Of a stretch of DNA of 64,000 bases, positions 10,076 through 24,161 are shown one piece after another. The translations under genes and the position numbers were made by a program. The notes beneath the pieces are model-generated. The model made no database searches and was not told where the DNA came from. It saw nothing but the letters and a program-made list of their open reading frames with translations. Source of the stretch: an uncultured Thermoplasmata archaeon (GTDB lineage Archaea > Thermoplasmatota > Thermoplasmata > UBA10834); NCBI GenBank assembly GCA_964488505.1, contig CAZAUI010000007.1, forward strand, positions 725 to 64,724. Reading direction: 5' to 3'. Numbering within the stretch: the first letter of the stretch is position 1; every line of letters starts with the position of its first letter.

Positions 10076-10147
10076 GGGCCGGTAGATCAGCGGCAGATCG
10101 CTCGCTTGGCATGCGAGAGGTCGCGAGTTCAAATCTCGCCCGGTCCA
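10076..10147 (+). tRNA. tRNA-Ala (anticodon GGC)
   Basis: The cloverleaf was folded by hand. Acceptor GGGCCGG/CCGGTCC carries the G3:U70 Ala identity pair. The anticodon arm is CTCGC-TTGGCAT-GCGAG and the T-arm is GCGAG-TTCAAAT-CTCGC. The discriminator is A and no CCA is encoded. Confidence 0.93.
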
Positions 10148-12391: not shown

Positions 12392-12844
12392 ATGCCAACG
12401 AGGGAAAACAGTATGAGGGAGCCGGCCCATGAGGCGGAGAGCCCGATGAACGCAAGGTCCGTGACAGCCGCCTACTCAATAGCCATAGGGATCATGATGA
12501 TAGCTATGTGGTCGGTTTTCGCCCTGACAGACCAGATTCCGGAGTTCGACGAACGACCGAAGGAGATAGCCTTCCACCTGGCCGCGGAGTTCCTGACGGC
12601 CTCCGCCCTGCTCCTAGGGGGCACGGGCTTGGCTTTGAGGCGCGTGTGGGGGTTCGGCATGAACATGGCCGCACTAGGCATGCTCGCCTATACGGTTGTC
12701 GTCAGCCCAGGATACTACGCGCAGACCGGAGACTACGCGTTCGTCGGCATGTTCGCCGTCTTGATGGTGATGACGCTGGCACTCATGGTGCTGTCCATCG
12801 TCAAGAGGGACGAACTCGCGGTGAAGAGAGAAGCCAGTCAGTAG
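12392..12844 (+). CDS. Hypothetical integral membrane protein (about 4 TM)
   Basis: Four hydrophobic segments are present (AYSIAIGIMMIAMWSVFAL, FLTASALLLGGTGLAL, NMAALGMLAYTVVV, FVGMFAVLMVMTLALMVLSIV). No family was recognised. Confidence 0.55.
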   Translation: MPTRENSMREPAHEAESPMNARSVTAAYSIAIGIMMIAMWSVFALTDQIPEFDERPKEIAFHLAAEFLTASALLLGGTGLALRRVWGFGMNMAALGMLAYTVVVSPGYYAQTGDYAFVGMFAVLMVMTLALMVLSIVKRDELAVKREASQ

Positions 12845-13860
12845 ACCGCGCCGTCCGCCTGCGTCGACACCAGGACCCCTTCCAACGCAGAGAGTTCGTA
12901 TTCCGCACCACCGCTGCCAGTCCATGTCACGATGTTGAACGTGGCAGTGCCGGACATCTTGTACACGGAGACGTCCATGTAGGTCAACGGCGTCCTAGGC
13001 TCGCAGACCTCTGGAGCGCCAGGCGTCCTCAGGAAGTACGCAGCCCCGGCGTCCGTCCATGAGAACATGGTGACCGTGCCGTCCATATCGACCCCTAGGG
13101 CGGTCTCCTCGTCGATGCCGATCCCGAATGCCTCCGTCGCCCAGCCGTCCTGTACTATCCTCGCTAGGAATGTAACGAGCCTCCCCATCCGGTCCCGGGC
13201 CACGAAGTGGCTGTCAGTGATCGTGTCGTCCATGTTGGGCATGTCGAGGAAGTCCTTGGCGAGTGTCACGCGCATGGTGTACGGGTCCCTCAGGGCGGAT
13301 ATGGAATCCACGGAGCCCCTCTGAGCGGCGTACACGAACTCGCCGAGCACGGCCAGTCCGGCGCTCGTGCCCCCTATGGGCGCACCCTTGTTCCGCACAT
13401 GGTGTATCGCCTTCTCGACCGGGGTGCCGTTCCACATGCTGACGTAGTTCCACTGGTTCCCGCCGGCTATGAACAGAGCCTCAGCGTTCCGTATCGTCTT
13501 CAGGACGAACTTGTCGGTGCAGGCCGCATCCGTGTTGAATACGATGGTCTCGACCGAGTTGACTCCGCCGAGCTCCGAGTAGAGGTAATCGTTGTAACCG
13601 TCCTCCCCGGAACACCTGATGATGACGAAATCGCCGCCACCGGACTTGGAGATCATCCATCTCATAGCATCGTCGACGTCGGTGCTCCCGCCTGCGAGCA
13701 GCAGGCACGGAGTCGTTTCCGTGACCACGTCGGCCGGGTCTCCTGTCAGATAGTAATCATAACTCGCGCTCTCCCCCACCGCCGACAACGAGACCATCGT
13801 GGTCGACAGCACCATTACCAGGACTAGAGTCCCTGCTAGCACGCGTCTCCTGAGGTACAC
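12838..13860 (-). CDS. Secreted peptidase S51 family protein (cyanophycinase / dipeptidase-E-like)
   Basis: An N-terminal signal/anchor (RRRVLAGTLVLVMVLSTTMVSLSAV) is followed by FIAGGNQWNY...GAPIGGTSAGLAVLGEF, the S51 nucleophile-Ser context GxSAG. Confidence 0.7.
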   Translation of the reverse strand: MYLRRRVLAGTLVLVMVLSTTMVSLSAVGESASYDYYLTGDPADVVTETTPCLLLAGGSTDVDDAMRWMISKSGGGDFVIIRCSGEDGYNDYLYSELGGVNSVETIVFNTDAACTDKFVLKTIRNAEALFIAGGNQWNYVSMWNGTPVEKAIHHVRNKGAPIGGTSAGLAVLGEFVYAAQRGSVDSISALRDPYTMRVTLAKDFLDMPNMDDTITDSHFVARDRMGRLVTFLARIVQDGWATEAFGIGIDEETALGVDMDGTVTMFSWTDAGAAYFLRTPGAPEVCEPRTPLTYMDVSVYKMSGTATFNIVTWTGSGGAEYELSALEGVLVSTQADGAVY

Positions 13861-13940
13861 AGTTACCTCCCCCGACCCGAGAGCACTGACCAGCCTACAT
13901 TATGCTTGCGTCAGTGTGCCGATCCGGGGCGGACGACATC

Positions 13941-13947
13941 TATATAT
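13941..13947 (+). promoter_or_regulatory. TATA-like box upstream of the surface-protein/ECF operon
   Basis: TATATAT lies about 55 nt upstream of ATG 14000. GAGAGAGGA (SD-like) lies 5-13 nt upstream of that ATG. Confidence 0.4.
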
Positions 13948-13999
13948 CGACCCTCGCCATCCGCGTTATGCTTCAATGAGCATATAGAGAGAGGATATC

Positions 14000-16495
14000 A
14001 TGAGTGGCGACTCCGAAGGAACTAATGACAACGCCTCGTCCGACGCGGGATCCGAGAACATCAGCCCCAAGAGGAAGGGCGCGTCACCTACGGTGAAGAT
14101 AATCGCCGTGGCGGTGATAGTGATCCTGCTCATAGCGGTCCCCGTGGGATACTTCATCCTGACGGGAGACGACGATGGCGATGATGACGATGACGACGAC
14201 GCGGATGAGGCTGTCGATTTCTCCGTCGTCCTGACGGGGAAGGATGGGCAGACTGAGACGGTGAACTACACGGCGTTGGAGGGGATGGACTTCGTTGAGG
14301 CCGTATCCTCATTCCAGAACACCTTCGGGACCTGGAAGGGGCTCGGGACCTACGGCGGGGTGGAGCTGAGAGACCTCGCAGACCTCGTCGGCGGCATGGA
14401 GCCGGGCGACGTCATGACGGTCTCCGCGCCTGACGGCTACGCATGCAACCTCACATACTATCAGGTCTACGCGGCAGAGGAGTACCTCGAGATACAGGGA
14501 CGGATCATCCTGGCGTATGAATACAACAGCTCCATCATGGACGACGAGGATGGCCCTATGGTCGCGGTGCTGTCTCCTGACGGGGCATTCAGCAACGACG
14601 ACTTCAACGCCACGTGTTCGAAGGACCCCGAGTTCTTGTCGCTTACAGGCGCAGGCCCCCTGTGGGTCAAGAACGTTAGCACGATATCTGTCGGCAGTCT
14701 GTACGAGGAATGGACGGTCAATCTCACAAACCTCGACGAGGTAACGACAGAGCTGACCAGGACAGAGTTCGTCAGACTCGCATACTTCAACAGCGCTGAG
14801 TGGACCGACGACGAGGAAGGGGTATGGTCAGGCGCCACATTGTCGTCCGTGCTAGGCCTGATCGACGACGACGACCCGTCGACTTTCAACGAGACGCTTG
14901 CAGACACGGACTACCAGGTACAGATAATGGCGAGCGACGAATACAACAAGACCTTCATCGCCAAGTACCTCGTCGAGAACGGGACCCTGCTGGCCGACAT
15001 GCTCAACGGCACCGCCCTCGGCGAGGAGGACTCCCCGCTGAGGATCGTAGGCGACGGCATGACCGGCGGCCAGATGGTCAGCATGGTCGCTTCTGTCACC
15101 ATGCTCCCGCCCTCGGAGCCCGATGTGCCGGAGGACGTCGTCCTGACCGTGGAAGGGACGACGACGTTGGACTTCACGCTCTCCGAGCTGCAGGGAATGA
15201 CGGCCGTCACGTCCATGGGCGGATTCATAAAGTCGACAGGCACCGTCATAGGGCCGGACGAGTTCACCGGTGTCCCCCTGAATGACCTTGTCGGCATGGT
15301 ATATTCAGGAGGGGAGTACTCGGTCGAGGTGGTCGCCACTGACGACTACACGATCACGTACAACTACTCGCAGGTCGAGGACGGGTTGTTCGAATACTTC
15401 GACTCTGCAACAGGAGACCCCCTTGGATACGACGCCTTCACGATGGTCATGGCCTATGCGCAGGACGGACTACCCCTGGAAAACATGACCCTGCGCATTG
15501 CCATCATCGACGACAGCGAACCAATCACGAGCAGCGACCTGTGGGCGAAGATGGTGAGGACGGTCAGGGTGGTCCCGTTCGTTGAGGAGTGGTCTCTCCG
15601 ATTGAACGGCACCACGGCCATGGACTTGAACAGACAGACATTCGAGGCGATTGCCTCCTGTGACTATCACATGGTCAGTTGGTCGTTCGAGAACGAGACG
15701 GGTGTACACACGTACACCGGCGTCGCATTGTGGGTGCTCGTCTCGGCCGTGGACGGGGCGGACGGGCCGGAAGGGGAGTACTCATTCAACGACCTGCTCG
15801 CATTCGCAGGCTACAGCGTCAGGGTGACCGCCTCGGACGGATACAACAAGGCGTTCACATCGATGCAGGTCGCGAGGAACGACTCCATAATCGTCGCGAA
15901 CAGGCTCGACGGACAACCGCTGCCGGACGACGAATGGCCCCTGAGGATAGTGGGGAACTGGCTGCCGGGCAACATGAAGGTCGGACAGGTGGTCAACATA
16001 TCCCTCGAGGACCTCCAGCCGGTGCCCGACTGGGAGCTGACCCTGATAGGCACTAGGACCATAGTCATGAGCGCGGAATCACTTGCATCTATGTTCTACT
16101 CCGGCCTACACGGGCCGTGGTTCAACTACACCGACGAGGACGGGATGCACGCTGCGTTCTACACCTTCACGAACGAGACCGGCGAACACACGTACGCAGG
16201 GATACCGCTCTGGATGCTCGTCGCGATCGTGGACGGAGAGGACCTGGACCACTACGAATTCAACGAGTCGCTGGCTGACGCGGGGTACGACGTGAATGTC
16301 AGCGCTGTCGACTACAGCACACTCCTTCCGATTTCCACTGTGGCACACAACGACAGCGTCATCCTCGCGTTCATGCTCGACGGGGGGTTCCTCATGGACG
16401 ACGACTACCCGTTGAAGCTCGTGGGCGAGTACCTGTCCGGGTCGCAGAAGGTGAAGGCGGTTGTGACGATAGTGCTGGTCAATCTGCCTGCGTGA
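14000..16495 (+). CDS. N-terminally anchored surface protein with five tandem Moco-less sulfite-oxidase/YedY-like domains
   Basis: 831 aa: cytoplasmic tail, one TM (VKIIAVAVIVILLIAVPVGYFIL), a poly-Asp linker, then five ~135-160-aa repeats. Approximate repeat coordinates are 14216-14695, 14705-15106, 15131-15577, 15584-16012 and 16025-16486. Recurring strings are GV.L.DLV / GV.LW.LV, DGY/SDGYNK and PLRIVG. About 20 N-x-S/T sequons are present. Confidence 0.8.
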   Translation: MSGDSEGTNDNASSDAGSENISPKRKGASPTVKIIAVAVIVILLIAVPVGYFILTGDDDGDDDDDDDADEAVDFSVVLTGKDGQTETVNYTALEGMDFVEAVSSFQNTFGTWKGLGTYGGVELRDLADLVGGMEPGDVMTVSAPDGYACNLTYYQVYAAEEYLEIQGRIILAYEYNSSIMDDEDGPMVAVLSPDGAFSNDDFNATCSKDPEFLSLTGAGPLWVKNVSTISVGSLYEEWTVNLTNLDEVTTELTRTEFVRLAYFNSAEWTDDEEGVWSGATLSSVLGLIDDDDPSTFNETLADTDYQVQIMASDEYNKTFIAKYLVENGTLLADMLNGTALGEEDSPLRIVGDGMTGGQMVSMVASVTMLPPSEPDVPEDVVLTVEGTTTLDFTLSELQGMTAVTSMGGFIKSTGTVIGPDEFTGVPLNDLVGMVYSGGEYSVEVVATDDYTITYNYSQVEDGLFEYFDSATGDPLGYDAFTMVMAYAQDGLPLENMTLRIAIIDDSEPITSSDLWAKMVRTVRVVPFVEEWSLRLNGTTAMDLNRQTFEAIASCDYHMVSWSFENETGVHTYTGVALWVLVSAVDGADGPEGEYSFNDLLAFAGYSVRVTASDGYNKAFTSMQVARNDSIIVANRLDGQPLPDDEWPLRIVGNWLPGNMKVGQVVNISLEDLQPVPDWELTLIGTRTIVMSAESLASMFYSGLHGPWFNYTDEDGMHAAFYTFTNETGEHTYAGIPLWMLVAIVDGEDLDHYEFNESLADAGYDVNVSAVDYSTLLPISTVAHNDSVILAFMLDGGFLMDDDYPLKLVGEYLSGSQKVKAVVTIVLVNLPA
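14168..14209 (+). repeat. GAY-rich low-complexity tract encoding a poly-Asp linker (DDDGDDDDDDDADE)
   Basis: Read directly: gac gac gat ggc gat gat gac gat gac gac gac gcg gat gag, immediately after the TM anchor. Confidence 0.9.
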
Positions 16496-16501
16496 GGTAA
16501 G

Positions 16502-17989
16502 ATGCTTGGGCTCCGGGACCGGAAGACATGGGCCGCGATCACCGTCGCGGCCAGCGCGGTAGTGATACTGGCCGGTTTAGGCTTCACAATGTTGGGAGAT
16601 AGCGTCGAAGCCGAAGGAGGAGATGTACTCACAAGGACCTCGGATAGCATCGTAGTCCGGTGCTCGGGGCCTGAAGTGATTCTCTCACTCGACAACTTCG
16701 ACGGCCGGGTGACGTTCACGAACTGTTTCCCGAACTCCACGCTGACAGGGTGCGACGGCCCGACGAGCGCGGAGGGGTCGAACATGTCTTGTGAGGTCGA
16801 CGGTTCGAAGACCGAGCTGCGGCTTTCGGCCCAGGAGAAGGTGTCGTTCAAGTTCGCGGTGATGGGCGACAGCCAGGGATACAACGACATCCTCGAGGCG
16901 GCCCTCGAGAAGGTGGACGGGTGCGAGTTTGTCATCCACTGCGGGGACGTGACCACGTCCGGGCAGGCGTCCGAGTACGACTCCTTCGAGAAGACCTTGA
17001 GGACCGTGACGGTCCCCGTCATGACGACCCCTGGGAACCACGACGTCAAGCTCGACGGGGGCGACGAGTACGTGTCGAGGCTCGGGGCCATGGCATACAG
17101 TTTCGAGTACTCTAGCATAAGGTTCGCATTCGTGGATTCGTCAGACCAAGTCATCTCGGAGGAGGAGATCGACTGGCTTGCGGATGTCTTCGACGGGGCA
17201 GACAGGAAGGTCCTCGTCACTCACGTGCCGAGCTACGACCCGTTCGGGGACAACCACACGCTGGACGCTGCCTCGTGCGACCGGATACAGGAGTTCATGC
17301 TCGAGGAGGGCGTCGACGCCGTGTTCACCGGCCACATACACGCCTACCACTTCATGCAGGTGGAGGGCATAGACTGTCTGATAACCGGCGGTGCGGGCGG
17401 GACGCTGGTGGACGGAGTCCACCACCTTGTCATCGTGACTGTGGACGAGACCGGCTTCTCATACGAGAAGATAGACCTCGAGACCGTCCCGACATACTCG
17501 CCGCATATCGAGGTCATAGGGAAGGACGGCGCGCGCCTGAACGTGACCTACGACGAACTGATGTTGATGGACATTCTGGAGGCCGATTCGTCTTACGAGA
17601 ACCTGTACGGCAACATCGCAGGGGAAGGACGATACGAGGGCGTCCTCGTCCGGGACCTGCTGGAACTGGTGGGGGGGATGGCCGAGGGCGACCTCCTCAC
17701 GATAACGGCTGCTGATGGATACTCCCAGGACTTCGGGTTCCTGAACGCTTACCCGGACGCTACATGGCTCGCCCTCCAAGGCGATATGATAGTCTCCATC
17801 GAGTTCGACGGCGTCCTGGCCGGCGATTGGACGGACGGCCCGAGGGTCGCCATGCTGCCCGATGACGGACTGTACAGCAATTCCGATTGCGAGCTTACCT
17901 CGTACGAAGGGCAAGGGTTCTGGGTGTCCGAATCCGCCGGAGCCAGATGGGTCAGGAACACACTCACCATCACGGTGGTGGCGGCGTGA
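16502..17989 (+). CDS. Membrane-anchored extracytoplasmic metallophosphoesterase fused to the same YedY-like domain
   Basis: An N-terminal TM (AAITVAASAVVILAGLGFTML) is followed by calcineurin-like motifs VMGDSQG, HCGDVT, PGNHD, VTHVP and TGHIHAYH. The C-terminal 160 aa (nt 17504-17986) align by eye with repeat 1 of the upstream protein (YEGVLVRDLLELVGGMAEGDLLTITAADGY vs YGGVELRDLADLVGGMEPGDVMTVSAPDGY). Confidence 0.8.
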   Translation: MLGLRDRKTWAAITVAASAVVILAGLGFTMLGDSVEAEGGDVLTRTSDSIVVRCSGPEVILSLDNFDGRVTFTNCFPNSTLTGCDGPTSAEGSNMSCEVDGSKTELRLSAQEKVSFKFAVMGDSQGYNDILEAALEKVDGCEFVIHCGDVTTSGQASEYDSFEKTLRTVTVPVMTTPGNHDVKLDGGDEYVSRLGAMAYSFEYSSIRFAFVDSSDQVISEEEIDWLADVFDGADRKVLVTHVPSYDPFGDNHTLDAASCDRIQEFMLEEGVDAVFTGHIHAYHFMQVEGIDCLITGGAGGTLVDGVHHLVIVTVDETGFSYEKIDLETVPTYSPHIEVIGKDGARLNVTYDELMLMDILEADSSYENLYGNIAGEGRYEGVLVRDLLELVGGMAEGDLLTITAADGYSQDFGFLNAYPDATWLALQGDMIVSIEFDGVLAGDWTDGPRVAMLPDDGLYSNSDCELTSYEGQGFWVSESAGARWVRNTLTITVVAA

Positions 17990-19062
17990 GGAAGTACTAC
18001 TTCTCGACGAAGGACCTCGTCACAATAGCCCTCCTGTCCGCTCTCGGCGGCGTGCTGTCGACGTACATAGGGTACCTCGGGAACATGGTCAACCACATCA
18101 TCGGGGTCCCGTTCGGTGCGGGACAGTTCATGGCCGGCCTCCATGTCATCTGGATAATGCTCGCCCTGGGGATAACCCGCAAGAAGGGCGCGGCGACCGC
18201 GACCGGGCTGCTGAAAGGCATCGTCGAGCTGTTCCTGGGGAGCACACACGGCATAATCATAGTGGTGGTGTCGATCATACAGGGGCTCATACCGGACCTG
18301 GTCCTGTTCAGAGACAAGACGAAGACGGACAGGAGCCCGACGATGTACGCCATCGCCGGCGGACTCTCGGCCGCATCGAACGTGGTCGTCTTCTACGCCT
18401 TCTTCCTATCTGGCGTGCCGTTCGTGCTGCTGGGGATGCTGTGCATGCTCGCGGCGGCGTCCGGGATCATATTCGGGGGATGGCTGGTCCTTGAGATGCT
18501 CGAATCGCTCGAGTTCTCCGGGATGGTCCTGGGGAAGAAGAGGATCATCGTCGACGACCCGCAGGTCCGCGAATCCGTATGGACCCAGAGCAAGGAAAGC
18601 AAGCGCAAGGTCTTCGCAGCGATGATGGTAGTGGCGATGTTCCTATCGGCGTTCACGGTCGGGGCCGTCTACTACTTCATGTTCGTATACAACATCACGG
18701 ACGAGGGGTCCGCCGAGGTGACGGGGTCCGTCGCTGACCCGTACACCTTCCGATACGCGGACTTCGAGGACCTCGAGGTCGTCGTCAACGCCGAACTGAT
18801 AGGAACCGTGACACACGTGGAACCGATGGATTACGAAGGGGTCCCGCTGAGAGATATGGTGGACAGAGCAGGGCCGGAGCCTGGCGCATCCCTCGTCTAC
18901 GTGACCGGCAGCGACGGATACTACGCCGCCTTCGGCCTCGAGGATGTCCTCTCGGACAGCCAGCTCATAATCGTCCTCGAGGACGGGAAGCTGAGGGTCG
19001 TCGCAGCCAACTACGACGGGGCCTACTGGGTGGAGGACGTCGTCGAGATAGAAGTGAGGTAG
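17986..19062 (+). CDS. ECF-transporter S-component (6 TM) fused through a 7th TM to an extracytoplasmic YedY-like domain
   Basis: The start is taken at GTG 17986 (GTGA overlap with the upstream stop); the track start at 17887 overlaps the previous gene by 100 nt. Six hydrophobic helices match an S-component pattern (KDLVTIALLSALGGVLSTYIGYL ... GLLKGIVELFLG...). A basic linker follows, then TM7 (VFAAMMVVAMFLSAFTVGAVYYFMFVY), then YEGVPLRDMVDRAGPEPGASLVYVTGSDGY...LRVVAANYDGAYWVEDVVEIEV. Confidence 0.7.
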   Translation: MRKYYFSTKDLVTIALLSALGGVLSTYIGYLGNMVNHIIGVPFGAGQFMAGLHVIWIMLALGITRKKGAATATGLLKGIVELFLGSTHGIIIVVVSIIQGLIPDLVLFRDKTKTDRSPTMYAIAGGLSAASNVVVFYAFFLSGVPFVLLGMLCMLAAASGIIFGGWLVLEMLESLEFSGMVLGKKRIIVDDPQVRESVWTQSKESKRKVFAAMMVVAMFLSAFTVGAVYYFMFVYNITDEGSAEVTGSVADPYTFRYADFEDLEVVVNAELIGTVTHVEPMDYEGVPLRDMVDRAGPEPGASLVYVTGSDGYYAAFGLEDVLSDSQLIIVLEDGKLRVVAANYDGAYWVEDVVEIEVR

Positions 19063-19063
19063 G

Positions 19064-20527
19064 ATGCTCGACGTCAAGGACCTCTATGTGAGGTATGAGA
19101 ACAGGTCCAAGCCGGCCATAGACGGACTCACATTCCACATAGACCCCGGGGAGTTCGTCCTTCTGATGGGCGGGAGCGCGTCCGGGAAGTCCACCGCGAT
19201 GCAGGCCGTGTGCGGCTTCATACCCGAGATAATACACGCGGAGAAGAGAGGGACGGTCAGCATAGACGGGAGGGTGTTCCAGGACGCTGCCTCGGCATCA
19301 AACGTCGTCTGCATGGTGCAGCAGGACCCTGAGACCCAGTTCTGCACCGAGATGGTAGAGGACGAGGTGGCGTTCGGGCCTGAGAACTTCAACATGCCTC
19401 AGAGAGAGATCCAGGCGGCGGTCGACGATGCGCTCGCAAGCGTCGGCGCAACGCACCTGGCCCACAGGAGGCTCTCGACGCTCTCCGGCGGGGAGAAGCA
19501 GAAGGTCGCCATCGCATCGATGCTCTCGGTGAGGCCGAGGCTCCTGATACTGGACGAGCCGACATCCAACCTGGACCCGCGCGCGGTGAGGGATGTCGTC
19601 ACAGTGGTCGATGCCCTCAGGCGCGAGAGGGATATGACGATCGTGGTGGTCGAGCACAGACCAGGACAGTTCATCGACCTCGCGTCTAGGGTCATGGTGA
19701 TGAACAAAGGACGGATGGAACACGACCGGACAAGGCCCGCGGGCGGCTTCGAAGGCAGACCGGTGCAAACGCCCCGGAGGTCAGCGAACCCGACGGCATC
19801 TACGAGCGGCCTCTACGCGGTCTCGACAGAAAGGCTGATGTTCGACATCGGAGGCGTCAGGATACTCGACGATGTCACTTTCGAAGTGCACGAAGGGGCC
19901 ATCGTCGCCCTCATGGGAGAGAACGGCGCAGGCAAGACCACATTACTGAGGCTCCTTACAGGACTTCTTCAGCCGGCCTCGGGGAATATCAAGGTCTTCG
20001 AACACGGGTTCGGCGCGGGCAGGAGGGCGGAGCCGTGGACCGTGGGGAAGGATGTGGGATTCGTATTCCAGAACCCGAACCACCAGATCTTCGAACGGTC
20101 CGTCGAGAAGGAGATACTGTTCGCTGCCGAAAACTACAGAGTCGACAAGAAGGATGCCGTCGCGGCGGTTGAAGGGTTCGAAGCGTCGGAGGAGGTGATG
20201 AGGTTCGTGCACCCCCATTGCCTCAGCTTCGGCCAGAAGAGAAGAGTCAACATCAGGTCCGCGTCCTCCCACGGGCCGAGACTGATACTCATGGACGAAC
20301 CTTTCGCGGGGCAGGATGAAGCGAACGCCGCGAAGATCAGGGAGATGATAGCGGGCATGCAGAAAGACGGGAAGACCACGATAGTGGTCACTCACGACCT
20401 GACATTCGCCAGAGAATGGTGCACTGACTTTCTGTTCATGAGTCACGGCAGGTTGACCAAGTCGGGGTCCGTATCTGACCTCGCCGACAGCGACTGGGAC
20501 GATCTGTTCCCGGGGGTCGGCAGATGA
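19064..20527 (+). CDS. ecfA: ECF-transporter ATPase, tandem (EcfA-EcfA' fused) ABC protein
   Basis: There are two ABC cassettes. Walker A motifs are GGSASGKST and GENGAGKTT. Signature motifs are LSGGEKQKV and LSFGQKRRV. Walker B motifs are LLILDEPTS and LILMDEPFA. Confidence 0.9.
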   Translation: MLDVKDLYVRYENRSKPAIDGLTFHIDPGEFVLLMGGSASGKSTAMQAVCGFIPEIIHAEKRGTVSIDGRVFQDAASASNVVCMVQQDPETQFCTEMVEDEVAFGPENFNMPQREIQAAVDDALASVGATHLAHRRLSTLSGGEKQKVAIASMLSVRPRLLILDEPTSNLDPRAVRDVVTVVDALRRERDMTIVVVEHRPGQFIDLASRVMVMNKGRMEHDRTRPAGGFEGRPVQTPRRSANPTASTSGLYAVSTERLMFDIGGVRILDDVTFEVHEGAIVALMGENGAGKTTLLRLLTGLLQPASGNIKVFEHGFGAGRRAEPWTVGKDVGFVFQNPNHQIFERSVEKEILFAAENYRVDKKDAVAAVEGFEASEEVMRFVHPHCLSFGQKRRVNIRSASSHGPRLILMDEPFAGQDEANAAKIREMIAGMQKDGKTTIVVTHDLTFAREWCTDFLFMSHGRLTKSGSVSDLADSDWDDLFPGVGR

Positions 20528-21279
20528 GCGCCGGACACGAGACGGTTGCGATGCGACTCAACCCTATCAGCAAAGCGACGCTGCTGGTGATGTGCTCGAT
20601 TCTGGTGCTTCTCATATCCGACCCGGTCCAGATTTCTGTCATCGTCGTGTGCGTCCTCGTGGCGAAGAGCCGGTACGAAGCCCGAGGGGTCATGACGAAA
20701 GGCATAATCGCCTTCGCGGCCACGATCTTCCTCGCTCAGGTGATCTTCAACGACTCTGGAGAGGTCGTCGCGGATTGGAGAGTGCTGGAGGTCACGACCG
20801 GCGGCATCTACGACGGCATATCGATAGCCGGCAAGTTCCTCAGCCTCATAATGATGTCATGGGTGTTCGTCGCGACCACGACGCCGACGGAGCTCTCGTC
20901 AGCACTAACAACGGCGGGTTTCAGATACAGGTACGCATTCCTGCCCGCGCTCTCCATGCGGTTCGTGCCCGTGTTCAGGTTCGAGCTCGCGACAGTGAGG
21001 GAGGCTCAGGTCACGCGAGGCATGAGGCTCGATAAGAGCCTCAGAGGAATAATCCGCTCGGCAAGATACACCACCACGCCTATGCTGATGACGGCCATGT
21101 CGAGAGTGAACTCCTTGGCGGCCTCGATGGAGGGCAGGGGGTTCGGCATGTACGACAAGAGGACGCAACTGAAACCCCTCAGGATGACCGCGTTCGACCT
21201 TGCGTTCATCGTGTCATCTGCGACTGCAGTGGTGCTCGCCTACTTCGTTTCGAATTGTCCGTCCCTGCAGGTCGCATGA
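20524..21279 (+). CDS. ecfT: ECF-transporter transmembrane T-component (CbiQ/EcfT family)
   Basis: A polytopic membrane protein with the characteristic coupling-helix Ala-Arg-Gly type motifs (...LATVREAQVTRGMRLD... and ...SLAASMEGRGF). It overlaps the ATPase stop by ATGA. Confidence 0.85.
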   Translation: MSAGHETVAMRLNPISKATLLVMCSILVLLISDPVQISVIVVCVLVAKSRYEARGVMTKGIIAFAATIFLAQVIFNDSGEVVADWRVLEVTTGGIYDGISIAGKFLSLIMMSWVFVATTTPTELSSALTTAGFRYRYAFLPALSMRFVPVFRFELATVREAQVTRGMRLDKSLRGIIRSARYTTTPMLMTAMSRVNSLAASMEGRGFGMYDKRTQLKPLRMTAFDLAFIVSSATAVVLAYFVSNCPSLQVA

Positions 21280-21281
21280 GG

Positions 21282-22001
21282 TCAGATCTTGAGCTCGCCT
21301 CTCTCCAGCCTCGAGGCGAATGACAGGAGTTCCTGCCCGTTCGACCTGAATTGGGAGTAATGGCGTATCGCCGCGGACACGGCGCCAGTCAGTTCCCCGG
21401 CCCTGCGCTGCCCCGAGCAGGCCCAGTACCGGTCAGCAAGGTGCCTCGCGAAGGCGATCTTCTGTTCCGTGAAAGGGGGATTGGTCATCATGGCGCTCGC
21501 GCACAACTGACCCAGGTCCGAGAGCGTATCACCAGTGGCCGCCTCCTCGAAGTCGAGGCCGAAGGCCTCCTGGTCAGTCACGATGAAGTTCCTTAGGATC
21601 GTATCGCCGCGGACACGCCCGAAGTCGAAGGCAACATGGAAGTTGGCCAACCACCGCGCGAGGCTGTCAGCCAACCTCTCCAGCTCCGATGTGAGCCCTA
21701 TCCTCGACGTCGGGACTATGATGCGGTCGAATACCTCCCCCGCCACCTGGCCGTCCACTGGGGTCATTACGATCGCGCCTTCCAGCAAAGCCAGAGGCAC
21801 GGGCACGAGCACGCCCCTCCCGCAGCAGTCCCGCAGCACGTCGTACTCCACCTGTGCCCGCTGACGCCACTCGCCCCTGTAGACCTTGACCACGAACGGT
21901 TCCCCGTCAACGACCGACCTGAACACCCGGTTCTTCTTGCTGTGGAAGAACGGACCCGTCCGCCCTTTCTCTAGGTCGGCAAGCGAGAATGTCACTGGCA
22001 T
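21282..22001 (-). CDS. APH/choline-kinase-fold small-molecule or protein kinase (family uncertain)
   Basis: VFRSVVDGEPFVVKVYRG carries the beta3 Lys context, and HVAFDFGRVRGDTILRNFIV...GLDFEEA resembles the catalytic-loop/DFG-equivalent of the phosphotransferase family. It is convergent with ecfT, with stops 2 nt apart. Confidence 0.55.
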   Translation of the reverse strand: MPVTFSLADLEKGRTGPFFHSKKNRVFRSVVDGEPFVVKVYRGEWRQRAQVEYDVLRDCCGRGVLVPVPLALLEGAIVMTPVDGQVAGEVFDRIIVPTSRIGLTSELERLADSLARWLANFHVAFDFGRVRGDTILRNFIVTDQEAFGLDFEEAATGDTLSDLGQLCASAMMTNPPFTEQKIAFARHLADRYWACSGQRRAGELTGAVSAAIRHYSQFRSNGQELLSFASRLERGELKI

Positions 22002-22685: not shown

Positions 22686-24161
22686 TCAACGACCTGTTGA
22701 CGGCCTGAACTCAAGGCGCTTCTGGTCGAATCCTTTTGCGTACTCCCTGAGGAGATTCGAAAGACCCTTTGCGACCTCGGGGTCCAACGGGTCTGGCGTG
22801 TGTGACTTCAGTACATCGTACATGCGCGACTTGGCCTTCTCCTCGATCCGCGCAGAGCCGTTCGCAGTCCATTGCTGCCGAGTCATCCTGTCCGAGAGTT
22901 TCGGCACGACGTGCTCCCTGCGGAACTGAGCGAGCGTCTCCTTGTGCTTCAGGAAGTTCCCTTGCGGGCCTATCCGGCCAATCACATCCACCGACAATGT
23001 GCTCTCGTCAACGCGGATGCCCTGGGCGATTCTAACCACGTTCGATGCAATCTCGTCGTCGATCATCAGTTGGACTGGCGAGAACGCGTTGAACGACTCC
23101 GTGGACCCCATGAAGAGCTCGGCGAAATCCGCACCCGACAGCGTCGCCATCAAGGCGGCCTGCGCCTTCTCGTACGAGGTCTGAGCATCCACCGTCTTGG
23201 AGTCGCTCTGGACGCCCATGTCGCTCGGGAGGCCGTAGAACTTCGCCATCTGCACCGCGCCCACTCCCAGCAGAGAGAACTCCGGAGAACCCGTCGCCGC
23301 GATGCCGGACCTCATGTCCAACGGACATGACACCGACCCGTAGACGACTTTGGGCGATTTCGTCACGCACTTCGCTATGGCTATCGTGCTCAATATCTCT
23401 GCGTTCTGCTGGACGAGGAGGCCGGCCAAGGACGCCGGAGCAGTCCCTCCTGCAAGCGCCATCACCATGATGAACACTGGAAGGTCCATCTCAGAGTACC
23501 TGAGGAGCGTGGTCAGCATCAGCTTGTCATGGCCGAGCGGGCTGATTGGGTCGATGTACCCGGGGAACACGGCCTTCTTGGCCACGAGACTCTTGTCCCC
23601 CAGGACCAACTCCGCCATGCGGAGAGTCATCTCGAACTCGAGGTCGTCCCCGCTGCCGCCGTAGCTCGGCTTGGATGTGTGGATGAGTCCCGTCGCCCAC
23701 ATGACCATGCTCATTGCGTCGGCCGAGACGTCTCCAGGATAGACCGGGACATATCCGAGCGCGCAGGTGTCGAGAGCGTCGAGCATGCGCGTGATGCGTA
23801 TGCCGTCCTCCAGCGTGGACGGCCTGAACTCCCCCGTCTCGGGCTCGATGTAGAAAAGGCACTGCGCTCCCGGGCCGAACTTGGTCCTGCCGTCGACGGC
23901 GTCCACCGAATTCTTCTCGCTGCGCGCGTGCCACCTGAAGTTGTGTGCGCAACTCTTCACTGCCTCGTTCACGGACGATTCTGACATCCTCACGATGCGG
24001 GATTTCTTGTCGACACGGTGGCCGTTACGCTCCAGCAGGTCGAGCACCTCGACGGAGTCGACGAACACGCCCGTCCTCTCGAGGACATCCAAAGTGGCGC
24101 CGTGTATCTGCTCAATGTCGGCCTTGTCCAAGACTGTCAGCAAGCTCTTCCTAGCTACCAT
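22686..24161 (-). CDS. MttB-superfamily methyltransferase homologue without pyrrolysine (quaternary-amine:corrinoid methyltransferase-like)
   Basis: An uninterrupted 491-aa ORF. The N-terminus ...LTVLDKADIEQIHGATLDVLERTGVFVDS..., its length and ...FYGLPSDMGVQSDSKTVDAQTSYEKA... are typical of the trimethylamine methyltransferase (MttB) family. There is no in-frame TAG. Confidence 0.85.
   Translation of the reverse strand: MVARKSLLTVLDKADIEQIHGATLDVLERTGVFVDSVEVLDLLERNGHRVDKKSRIVRMSESSVNEAVKSCAHNFRWHARSEKNSVDAVDGRTKFGPGAQCLFYIEPETGEFRPSTLEDGIRITRMLDALDTCALGYVPVYPGDVSADAMSMVMWATGLIHTSKPSYGGSGDDLEFEMTLRMAELVLGDKSLVAKKAVFPGYIDPISPLGHDKLMLTTLLRYSEMDLPVFIMVMALAGGTAPASLAGLLVQQNAEILSTIAIAKCVTKSPKVVYGSVSCPLDMRSGIAATGSPEFSLLGVGAVQMAKFYGLPSDMGVQSDSKTVDAQTSYEKAQAALMATLSGADFAELFMGSTESFNAFSPVQLMIDDEIASNVVRIAQGIRVDESTLSVDVIGRIGPQGNFLKHKETLAQFRREHVVPKLSDRMTRQQWTANGSARIEEKAKSRMYDVLKSHTPDPLDPEVAKGLSNLLREYAKGFDQKRLEFRPSTGR

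Follow-up and report, generated by a model that had tools for sequence, protein, structure and literature searches.

A sulfite-oxidase-like domain shared by surface proteins and an ECF importer in Thermoplasmata: a candidate salvage system for a molybdopterin-type cofactor

What does an energy-coupling factor (ECF) importer take up when its substrate-capture subunit shares an extracytoplasmic domain with a membrane-anchored enzyme and a multi-repeat surface protein? This question is raised by a gene cluster in a 64-kb stretch of DNA from an uncultured Thermoplasmata archaeon (hereafter the window, to which position numbers refer; residue numbers are those of the window proteins). Five open reading frames (ORFs), all on the + strand, span positions 14000-21279 and encode successively an 831-aa surface protein (14000-16495), a membrane-anchored, extracytoplasmic metallophosphoesterase (MPE, 495 aa, 16502-17989), an ECF S component (358 aa counted from its GTG start, 17986-19062), a fused double ECF ATPase (A-A', 487 aa, 19064-20527) and an ECF T component of the CbiQ family (251 aa, 20524-21279). 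A preliminary description of this DNA had reported the five genes as co-oriented, with 6 nt between the first two, a GTGA shared by the second and third, a single nucleotide between the third and fourth and an ATGA shared by the last two, which we confirmed at all four junctions; the GC content is flat over the region (0.59-0.62). We tentatively interpret the cluster as a salvage importer of a molybdopterin-type cofactor or of a fragment of it, be it the molybdenum cofactor (Moco), the tungsten cofactor (Tuco), their dinucleotide forms or molybdopterin itself.

The three surface proteins are united by a domain that occurs in seven copies, five in tandem in the 831-aa protein and one each at the C-termini of the MPE and of the S component. 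Across the 64-kb window, hidden Markov models (HMMs) of this domain matched only these three genes. Profiles built from the copies present at 80 related loci defined four subtypes, A (repeat 1 and the MPE C-terminal domain), A' (repeat 3), B (repeats 2, 4, and 5) and Sc (the S-component copy). The repeat order in the 831-aa protein is A-B-A'-B-B, with repeat 1 at residues 68-231 (14201-14692; HMM A, i-E 1.8e-60), repeat 2 at residues 236-371 (14705-15112; HMM B, i-E 6e-40), repeat 3 at residues 377-526 (15128-15577; HMM A3, i-E 2.7e-61), repeat 4 at residues 529-673 (15584-16018; HMM B, i-E 4e-60) and repeat 5 at residues 676-830 (16025-16489; HMM B, i-E 3e-49), all on the + strand. Repeat 1 and the C-terminal domain of the MPE (17480-17980, +) share 38% identity over 182 aa (E 1e-32), and HHalign gave probabilities of 98-99.8% for all pairs of the four subtype profiles (99.8% for A against A3). 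Both methods bore out the earlier claim that repeats 1 and 3, the MPE and the S component carry the same domain; only these two repeats of the 831-aa protein had been named, and all five are in fact homologous.

This domain is a sulfite-oxidase-type (SUOX) Moco-binding fold. The 831-aa protein matched the Pfam family PF00174 (Oxidored_molyb) in three stretches (E 1.9e-21), the strongest being residues 728-827 in repeat 5, and the extracytoplasmic domain of the S component (18712-19059, +) scored 23.3 bits against the same family, just below the cut-off of 24. In Foldseek searches, the AlphaFold2 (AF2) model of the latter recovered SorA, SoxC, YedY and sulfite oxidase (E 1e-3 to 3e-6) as well as the PruR structures 7rkb, 7kou, and 7kos (target TM-scores 0.60-0.62). 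In HHalign alignments the domain covered essentially the whole Moco-domain core, corresponding to YedY residues ~65-223 (the YedY sequence was checked against 1xdq), and not just the C-terminal two-thirds of the fold as previously proposed. The C-terminal half of the type-B repeats aligned with SUOX enzymes (E ~4e-4), and repeat 4 aligned with YedY over 141 columns (probability 64%, E 6.5e-5); the type-A and type-A' profiles gave HHalign probabilities below 1% against YedY. The most conserved feature across all subtypes is a D-G-Y motif, which repeat 1 combines with SSFQN in the hairpin region and a C-terminal G-x-x-W. About 20 polar or aromatic residues are invariant in the MPE C-terminal domain over archaea and bacteria, which points to a ligand site and not to a simple spacer.

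The canonical Mo-ligand Cys of the SUOX fold is absent from six of the seven copies. In the hairpin region, the S-component copy shows an invariant A-E-L-x-G and no conserved Cys. Type A exhibits SSY(Q/E)N with invariant Ser and Asn; the equivalence of this Ser to the Cys is read from the position of the motif, since the type-A profile could not be aligned with YedY. Type A' has no Cys, the hairpin region of repeats 2 and 5 has none either, and repeat 2 is entirely Cys-free, as the positions of Cys residues confirmed. The more general statement that no copy retains a Mo-Cys segment held for six copies; repeat 4 possesses a C-x-x-H motif (Cys554), retained in 74 of 86 homologous copies and lost in 12, which sits in the same hairpin region as the Mo-ligand Cys of SUOX enzymes but aligns ambiguously, with an offset of three residues from YedY Cys102. 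Compared with the SUOX enzymes (YedY/MsrP, SorA, SoxC, sulfite oxidase), the cluster domain shares the fold, the PF00174 signature and the C-terminal half with its P-L-R-x-V ... V-x-x-I pattern but, besides the canonical Cys in six of the seven copies, it lacks the dimerisation domain and the twin-arginine (Tat) signal, and it is found in tandem repeats or fused to a phosphoesterase and to a transporter subunit. A different Cys is found in the MPE copy: the D-C pair of YSNSDCExTS, which includes Cys463 (~17888-17890), is invariant in 31 of 31 phosphoesterase homologues; the multi-repeat proteins have D-F or D-L there in their repeat 1. Cys463 may be a ligand or disulphide residue specific to the MPE copy of the domain.

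The 831-aa protein starts with an N-terminal membrane anchor (residues 32-54), followed by an Asp-rich linker and the five SUOX-like domains. It contains 23 N-glycosylation sequons, a density of 2.8 per 100 aa, compared with 0.2-0.4 per 100 aa for the ATPase and the T component. No twin-arginine motif was present in the N-terminal signal-anchor helices, and the S component has an additional seventh transmembrane (TM) helix (18610-18693, +) before its SUOX-like domain. The anchors without twin-arginine motif, this seventh helix and the density of sequons together place all copies of the domain outside the cell. The domains are exported unfolded and hence with no cofactor inserted beforehand in the cytoplasm. 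The linker includes an Asp-rich run of ~13 residues (DDDGDDDDDDDADE; residues 55-68, 14162-14200, +) between the anchor and the first domain. The sole match of the 831-aa protein in a single-sequence search of the PDB, an engineered streptavidin, was obtained through this linker and was rejected as spurious.

All the defining parts of a group I (dedicated) ECF importer, S, T and two ATPase domains, are present in one operon, and the Pfam and NCBIfam matches agree with the preliminary description on this point. The S component matched PF09819 (71 bits for a cut-off of 25.2, E 1.3e-19), the ATPase contains two PF00005 domains and matched the NCBIfam model ECF_ATPase_1 (TIGR04520; 330 bits, cut-off 315), and the T component (PF02361, E 3.2e-24) carries the coupling x-R-G motifs VTRGM and EGRGF. 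The AF2 model of the S component (predicted local distance difference test, pLDDT, 80.7) consists of a helical core, a long helix (196-234) and then the C-terminal beta domain. The core corresponds to the six helices of YkoE, which was recovered by Foldseek (5edl, 6.5e-7) together with 4hzu_S and 5kc4_E, and the profile of the S family matched 5edl with an E-value of 8.4e-10.

In YkoE, Glu77 and Gln95 form hydrogen bonds with the aminopyrimidine of thiamine and Trp49 stacks on the ring (PMC5037267). We compared the thiamine-pocket set of YkoE, composed of these three residues, Tyr46 and Asp131, with the S component of the cluster. E81 and Q99, both invariant, align with Glu77 and Gln95; the position of Trp49 is occupied by an invariant His (H53) and that of Tyr46 by Ala. 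The conserved Glu/Gln pair combined with the replacement of Trp49 suggests that the pocket may accommodate an N-heterocyclic organic ligand different from thiamine. The identity of the cluster as a YkoE-type thiamine transporter was rejected because the stacking Trp is lost and because no thiamine pyrophosphate (TPP) riboswitch was detected in the 23 bacterial or Asgard loci scanned; the JGI annotation of the S component is thiamin/hydroxymethylpyrimidine (HMP) permease. The overall comparison with YkoEDC, the group I ECF system for thiamine/HMP of Bacillus subtilis (5EDL), leads to a similar picture. Both have a dedicated operon with S, T and a fused double ATPase (YkoD-like here), and YkoE is the best match of the S core in sequence and in fold. 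In contrast to YkoEDC, the cluster has His in place of Trp49, the seventh helix and the extracytoplasmic SUOX-like domain, where YkoEDC has YkoF it has a set of surface proteins plus a phosphoesterase and a kinase, and its bacterial orthologues are found under a Moco/Tuco riboswitch and not under a TPP riboswitch. An in-frame ATG upstream of the GTG start (17947-17985, +) would give the S component a His-rich N-terminus (MGQEHTHHHGGGG) overlapping the end of the MPE gene. Most homologues of the S component begin at the GTG position, and one, P0096, has a comparable extension.

The MPE (PF00149 Metallophos, E 9e-18) combines a TM helix at residues 10-32 with a beta-sandwich domain, a catalytic domain (16847-17449, +) and the type-A SUOX-like domain. 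Its AF2 model (pLDDT 90.8, predicted TM-score 0.82, helix 2-30) is closest to phospho(di)esterases of the purple-acid-phosphatase type, GpdQ and Rv0805, the top match being a plant diphosphonucleotide phosphatase/phosphodiesterase. The calcineurin-like motifs GD, GDxx, GNH, H, and GHxH are all present, and the metal ligands D123, D149, N179, H180, H241, H278, and H280 do not vary among 31 homologues.

A sixth conserved member of the cluster, missed by the preliminary description, is a gene for a small kinase-like protein (21282-22001, -; APH / Bud32 / RIO-like, PF01636, E 7e-12) that is convergent with the T gene and ends two bases away from it. A homologue adjoins the T gene in 40 of the 40 Thermoplasmata loci in which at least 800 bp are available at this place, as well as in five bacterial loci, and it is located on the opposite flank of the cluster in two Asgard loci. 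The kinase motifs are intact (beta-3 Lys, helix-C Glu, G-D-x-x-x-R-N-F, D-F-E) and K39, E52, D133, N138, D150, and E152 are invariant. Among solved structures, Bud32/TP53RK, RIO kinases and APH enzymes are the closest to it.

Relatives were detected in 235 species in a scan of one genome per species. The 80 loci examined are the best of these (53 from Thermoplasmata, six from Asgard archaea, and 21 from Bacillota or other bacteria), many of them on truncated contigs. The Asgard loci belong to Heimdall-, Hermod-, Thor-, and Promethearchaeota, and the bacterial ones include Syntrophomonadaceae, Pelotomaculum, Desulfosporosinus, and Syntrophaceticus. The S component is fused to its ectodomain in 79 of the 80 loci, a multi-repeat protein with 2 to 10 domain copies is present in 61 and the MPE in 64, with the domain in 60 of these 64. 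Thermoplasmata, Asgard archaea and syntrophic Bacillota all retain the cluster, with a strongly conserved gene order, which answers positively the question of neighbourhood conservation raised by the preliminary description. The closest relatives are found at loci L001 (80% identity) and L002 (77%), and the bacterial orthologues are 40-47% identical to the S component of the window. The fused S-component family comprises more than 120 clusters at 50-100% identity, all of ~345-362 aa, and we obtained 353 matches at E ≤1e-3 among 1.84 billion representative proteins. Stand-alone anchored ectodomains and stand-alone S cores were found among these library matches, a pattern of fusion and fission. 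These separately encoded forms include P0336, P0355, P0356, P0360, P0363, and P0374 as well as many proteins of 180-210 aa; the S-type ectodomain on its own is of ~170 aa and apparently anchored at the N-terminus.

The bacterial orthologues provided a link with pterin cofactors. In 8 of the 12 Bacillota loci that could be assessed, having sufficient upstream sequence, a Moco RNA (RF01055, 61-78 bits for a gathering score of 36) is located directly upstream of the operon. It lies on the coding strand just before the first gene of the cluster in L057, L058, L061, L063, L067, and L079. In L073, the gene of the repeat protein is preceded by one RF01055 element, and another lies before a pair of tupA-like genes that run into S-A-T-kinase. 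A single riboswitch precedes tupA-tupB-tupC-MOT1-MPE-S-A-T in L069, and in L078 a riboswitch-controlled tupABC adjoins S-A-T-kinase. The five aptamers examined in alignment are all P3-less, a variant of the Moco RNA that was associated with tungsten-cofactor metabolism by Regulski et al. (PMC2408646). In most of ten leaders, including both of those located before tupA, a terminator hairpin and U-run follow right behind the aptamer; this predicted aptamer-plus-terminator layout is typical of OFF switches. In the 23 bacterial and Asgard loci scanned, no TPP, tetrahydrofolate (THF) or other cluster riboswitch was detected, and only Moco/Tuco aptamers were recovered. The window itself encodes an aldehyde:ferredoxin oxidoreductase family gene (300-2129, +; PF02730, E 1e-73; PF01314, E 4e-125) of the tungstopterin class, so the organism consumes a W-pterin cofactor.

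Some other observations concern the leaders and flanks of these loci. A riboswitch of L073 precedes a protein of 1859 aa with six domain copies. Directly after the ECF cluster of L069, a second P3-less Moco riboswitch (13480-13600) precedes the genes for a dockerin-containing protein (13710-14660) and a 1618-aa protein (14653-19509). A c-di-AMP riboswitch and a T-box leader in the flanks of L067 (1538-1673) and L057 (15164-15424) are apparently unrelated to the cluster. Genes for anion symporters of the Na_sulph_symp/CitMHS type just past the kinase-like gene account for 8 of 106 neighbour ORFs in 16 Thermoplasmata loci, for instance in L011 (14202-15737), L012 (14179-15729), L018 (14209-15774), and L021 (14185-15732); the window has no anion symporter gene at this position.

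A precedent for a ligand-binding domain of this kind is PruR, whose structures show pterin binding in the absence of the Mo-ligand Cys, N102 and Y104 forming hydrogen bonds with the pterin and stacking on it (PMC11194511). Like the domain of the cluster, PruR (known from Agrobacterium and other Proteobacteria; 7KOU, 7RKB) is a small extracytoplasmic Cys-less SUOX module, and its N102-x-Y104 aligns with the conserved D-G-Y. The contact set of PruR also includes W160, of which a conserved C-terminal Trp of the cluster domain is a possible counterpart. The best PDB profile match of the type-A domain is 7rkb (E 0.029). The two nevertheless differ in their hairpin, which is longer in the cluster, in their architecture, the cluster domain being fused or in tandem in membrane-anchored proteins, and in their partners, which are the c-di-GMP (GGDEF-EAL) enzyme DcpA for PruR and the ECF module, the phosphoesterase and the kinase for the cluster. 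They also differ in distribution (Proteobacteria versus archaea and Bacillota). It had been considered earlier that the repeats could turn out to belong to another, already characterised family. Instead, the domain is outside any characterised family and PruR is a fold-level analogue only; the cluster domain probably resembles PruR in its likely role without belonging to the PruR family.

From the anatomy of the cluster, the folds, their conservation and the linkage of the bacterial orthologues to the riboswitch and tupABC, we infer the ligand, the order of the steps and the specificities of the phosphoesterase and of the kinase as follows. The anchored, Sec-exported proteins would display a Cys-less SUOX fold that binds the pterin moiety as PruR does, and the multi-repeat glycoprotein would ensure multivalent capture at the cell surface. 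The anchored MPE would hold the ligand by its own copy of the domain and strip off the nucleotide and/or the terminal phosphate. The ectodomain of the S component, behind the seventh helix, would then pass the trimmed pterin to the YkoE-like pocket, import being powered by the A-A'/T module. In the cytoplasm, the small kinase may re-phosphorylate the compound, after which the metal, brought separately as tungstate by TupABC-type transporters, would be inserted. Salvage of this kind gives a place to each component of the cluster. The preliminary description had viewed the cluster as a capture-process-import machine, a view that remains the best fit to its anatomy but that had overlooked the sixth gene and left the ligand open. 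In Haemophilus, salvage of NAD by the NadN nucleotidase, PnuC and the NadR kinase follows a comparable extracellular trimming. The proposed pathway would share with it the removal of nucleotide or phosphate at the surface, the import of a neutral core and the re-phosphorylation in the cytoplasm. The proteins are, however, unrelated, the enzyme, the multivalent binder and the transporter of the cluster share one domain, and no route of this kind has so far been associated with such a class of ligand.

Several points weigh against salvage of a molybdopterin-type compound. Molybdopterin is chemically labile, we know of no molybdopterin kinase, and the closest relatives of the kinase-like protein, Bud32 and RIO, act as protein kinases or ATPases and are not clearly small-molecule kinases. 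The sequence matches with PruR are weak (E 0.03-0.7) and the P-W motif of PruR (W70) is absent from the cluster. The riboswitch evidence comes from the bacterial orthologues and not from the archaeal window, in which the Rfam search over the whole length recovered only a tRNA (10076-10147) and no riboswitch before the operon. In addition, 4 of the 12 assessable bacterial loci are without riboswitch, and a Moco/Tuco riboswitch is equally expected before genes for tungstate/molybdate transporters or for proteins using the cofactor. Finally, no Moco-biosynthesis family was present among the 25 commonest neighbour families (125 bacterial/Asgard and 106 Thermoplasmata ORFs).

The main rival explanation is metal acquisition, which accounts for the riboswitch and for the neighbours equally well. 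The cluster would then be an ECF-type system for high-affinity uptake of tungstate or molybdate, or of their thio- or organically complexed forms, in which the domains at the surface and the dinuclear centre of the phosphoesterase would serve to trap oxyanions. The tungsten-cofactor type of the riboswitch and the co-transcription or adjacency with tupABC and the MOT1-family transporter are consistent with such a role. Tup/Mod-type binding proteins are also the commonest extra neighbours in the bacterial and Asgard loci, and the anion symporters recur beside the Thermoplasmata clusters. In metallophosphoesterase centres, tungstate and molybdate bind in place of phosphate, which they mimic, and the conserved C-x-x-H of repeat 4 could be added to this list. 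We nevertheless consider this explanation unlikely. The ECF system would be the third or fourth oxyanion transporter of a single operon in L069, redundant with tupABC and MOT1, the Glu/Gln pair by which YkoE reads the aminopyrimidine ring is retained in its S core, and to our knowledge no ECF transporter for an oxyanion has been described. TupABC, WtpABC and ModABC share with the cluster the same riboswitch element, and sometimes the same transcript, in Bacillota, but they are type I ATP-binding cassette transporters with a soluble or lipid-anchored oxyanion binder, whereas the cluster encodes an ECF importer with a YkoE-like pocket. Metal uptake would also leave unexplained the conserved kinase and the D-G-Y, which resembles a pterin contact in a fold known for pterin ligands.

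Another organic micronutrient, such as thiamine, HMP, a folate/methanopterin precursor or a pterin of the neopterin/monapterin type, would call for the same chemistry, with the phosphoesterase removing phosphates before uptake and the kinase restoring them. This logic of trimming, import and re-phosphorylation is generic for vitamins. YkoE is the closest relative of the S core, in line with the JGI label, and PruR prefers small reduced pterins and cannot take Moco. We nonetheless regard this alternative as rather improbable, since the 23 scanned loci contain Moco/Tuco aptamers and neither TPP nor THF riboswitches, and since the Trp49 that stacks on thiamine in YkoE is not conserved. Moreover, the type-A hairpin region is longer than the truncated one of PruR, with ~14 versus ~8 residues from the position equivalent to the Cys to the aromatic-x-G motif.

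The presence of the same domain on all three surface proteins, its variable copy number in the repeat proteins (2-10) and the loss of the Mo-ligand Cys could also be explained if the domain were purely an assembly or scaffold module that keeps enzyme, repeat protein and transporter together at the surface or in the S-layer, with a transporter ligand that has nothing to do with the domain. We consider this improbable because many polar and aromatic residues remain invariant at 35-45% identity across two domains of life, because the pterin-contacting motif of PruR is conserved and because the riboswitch ties the operon to a pterin cofactor. Of the two options of the preliminary description, a binding or a scaffold module, the invariant residues, including D-G-Y, make the second unlikely. 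It is very improbable that the repeat protein functions as a true Mo/W oxidoreductase outside the cytoplasm, comparable to YedY/MsrP, with the riboswitch serving enzymes that use the cofactor as Moco riboswitches do in some genomes: the PF00174 match above threshold, the alignment of the B-type repeats with the C-terminal half of SUOX enzymes and the conserved Cys of repeat 4 near the ligand position would fit, but there is no twin-arginine signal for cofactor-loaded export, the Cys is missing from six of the seven copies and from 12 of the 86 copies of repeat 4, no dimerisation or haem partner domain was detected with Pfam, and the ECF module, the phosphoesterase fusion and the S-component fusion would be left unexplained.

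Import of a molybdopterin-type compound would have several consequences. In a review of June 2026, the route by which pterins cross membranes was described as unknown (PMC13259868). The cluster could represent the first dedicated prokaryotic pathway for uptake and salvage of a Mo/W pterin cofactor, either intact or as dephosphorylated or de-nucleotidylated molybdopterin, although we put this forward with slightly more caution than salvage of a molybdopterin-type compound as such. We found no published description of this system in literature searches, in accordance with the earlier remark that no characterised system has this layout. ECF importers are defined as lacking extracytoplasmic binding proteins; here, the capture subunit carries a domain of a ligand-binding type on the outside. 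If our interpretation is correct, anaerobic archaea (Thermoplasmata, Asgard) and syntrophic Bacillota would share the Mo/W pterin cofactor as a community resource, as is the case for cobamides, which would help to explain the dependence of uncultured Thermoplasmata and Asgard archaea on W/Mo enzymes and would define a new class of targets for the Moco/Tuco riboswitch regulon. With its ligand confirmed, the cluster would make the sharing of cofactors within anoxic communities directly accessible to genetics and biochemistry. If the ligand were tungstate, the system would be the first ECF-type importer of an oxyanion.

A few neighbouring genes complete the description of the locus. Directly upstream of the operon and divergent from it, the window encodes an apparently secreted protein of the Peptidase_S51 family (12838-13860, -). 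An MttB-family methyltransferase gene is located near the cluster (22686-24161, -) and an MtmB gene is present in the related locus L008 (903-2300, -); these neighbours hint at methylated-amine metabolism in these Thermoplasmata. Heliorhodopsin genes (PF18761, E ~1e-99) neighbour the cluster in 3 of the 16 Thermoplasmata loci surveyed.

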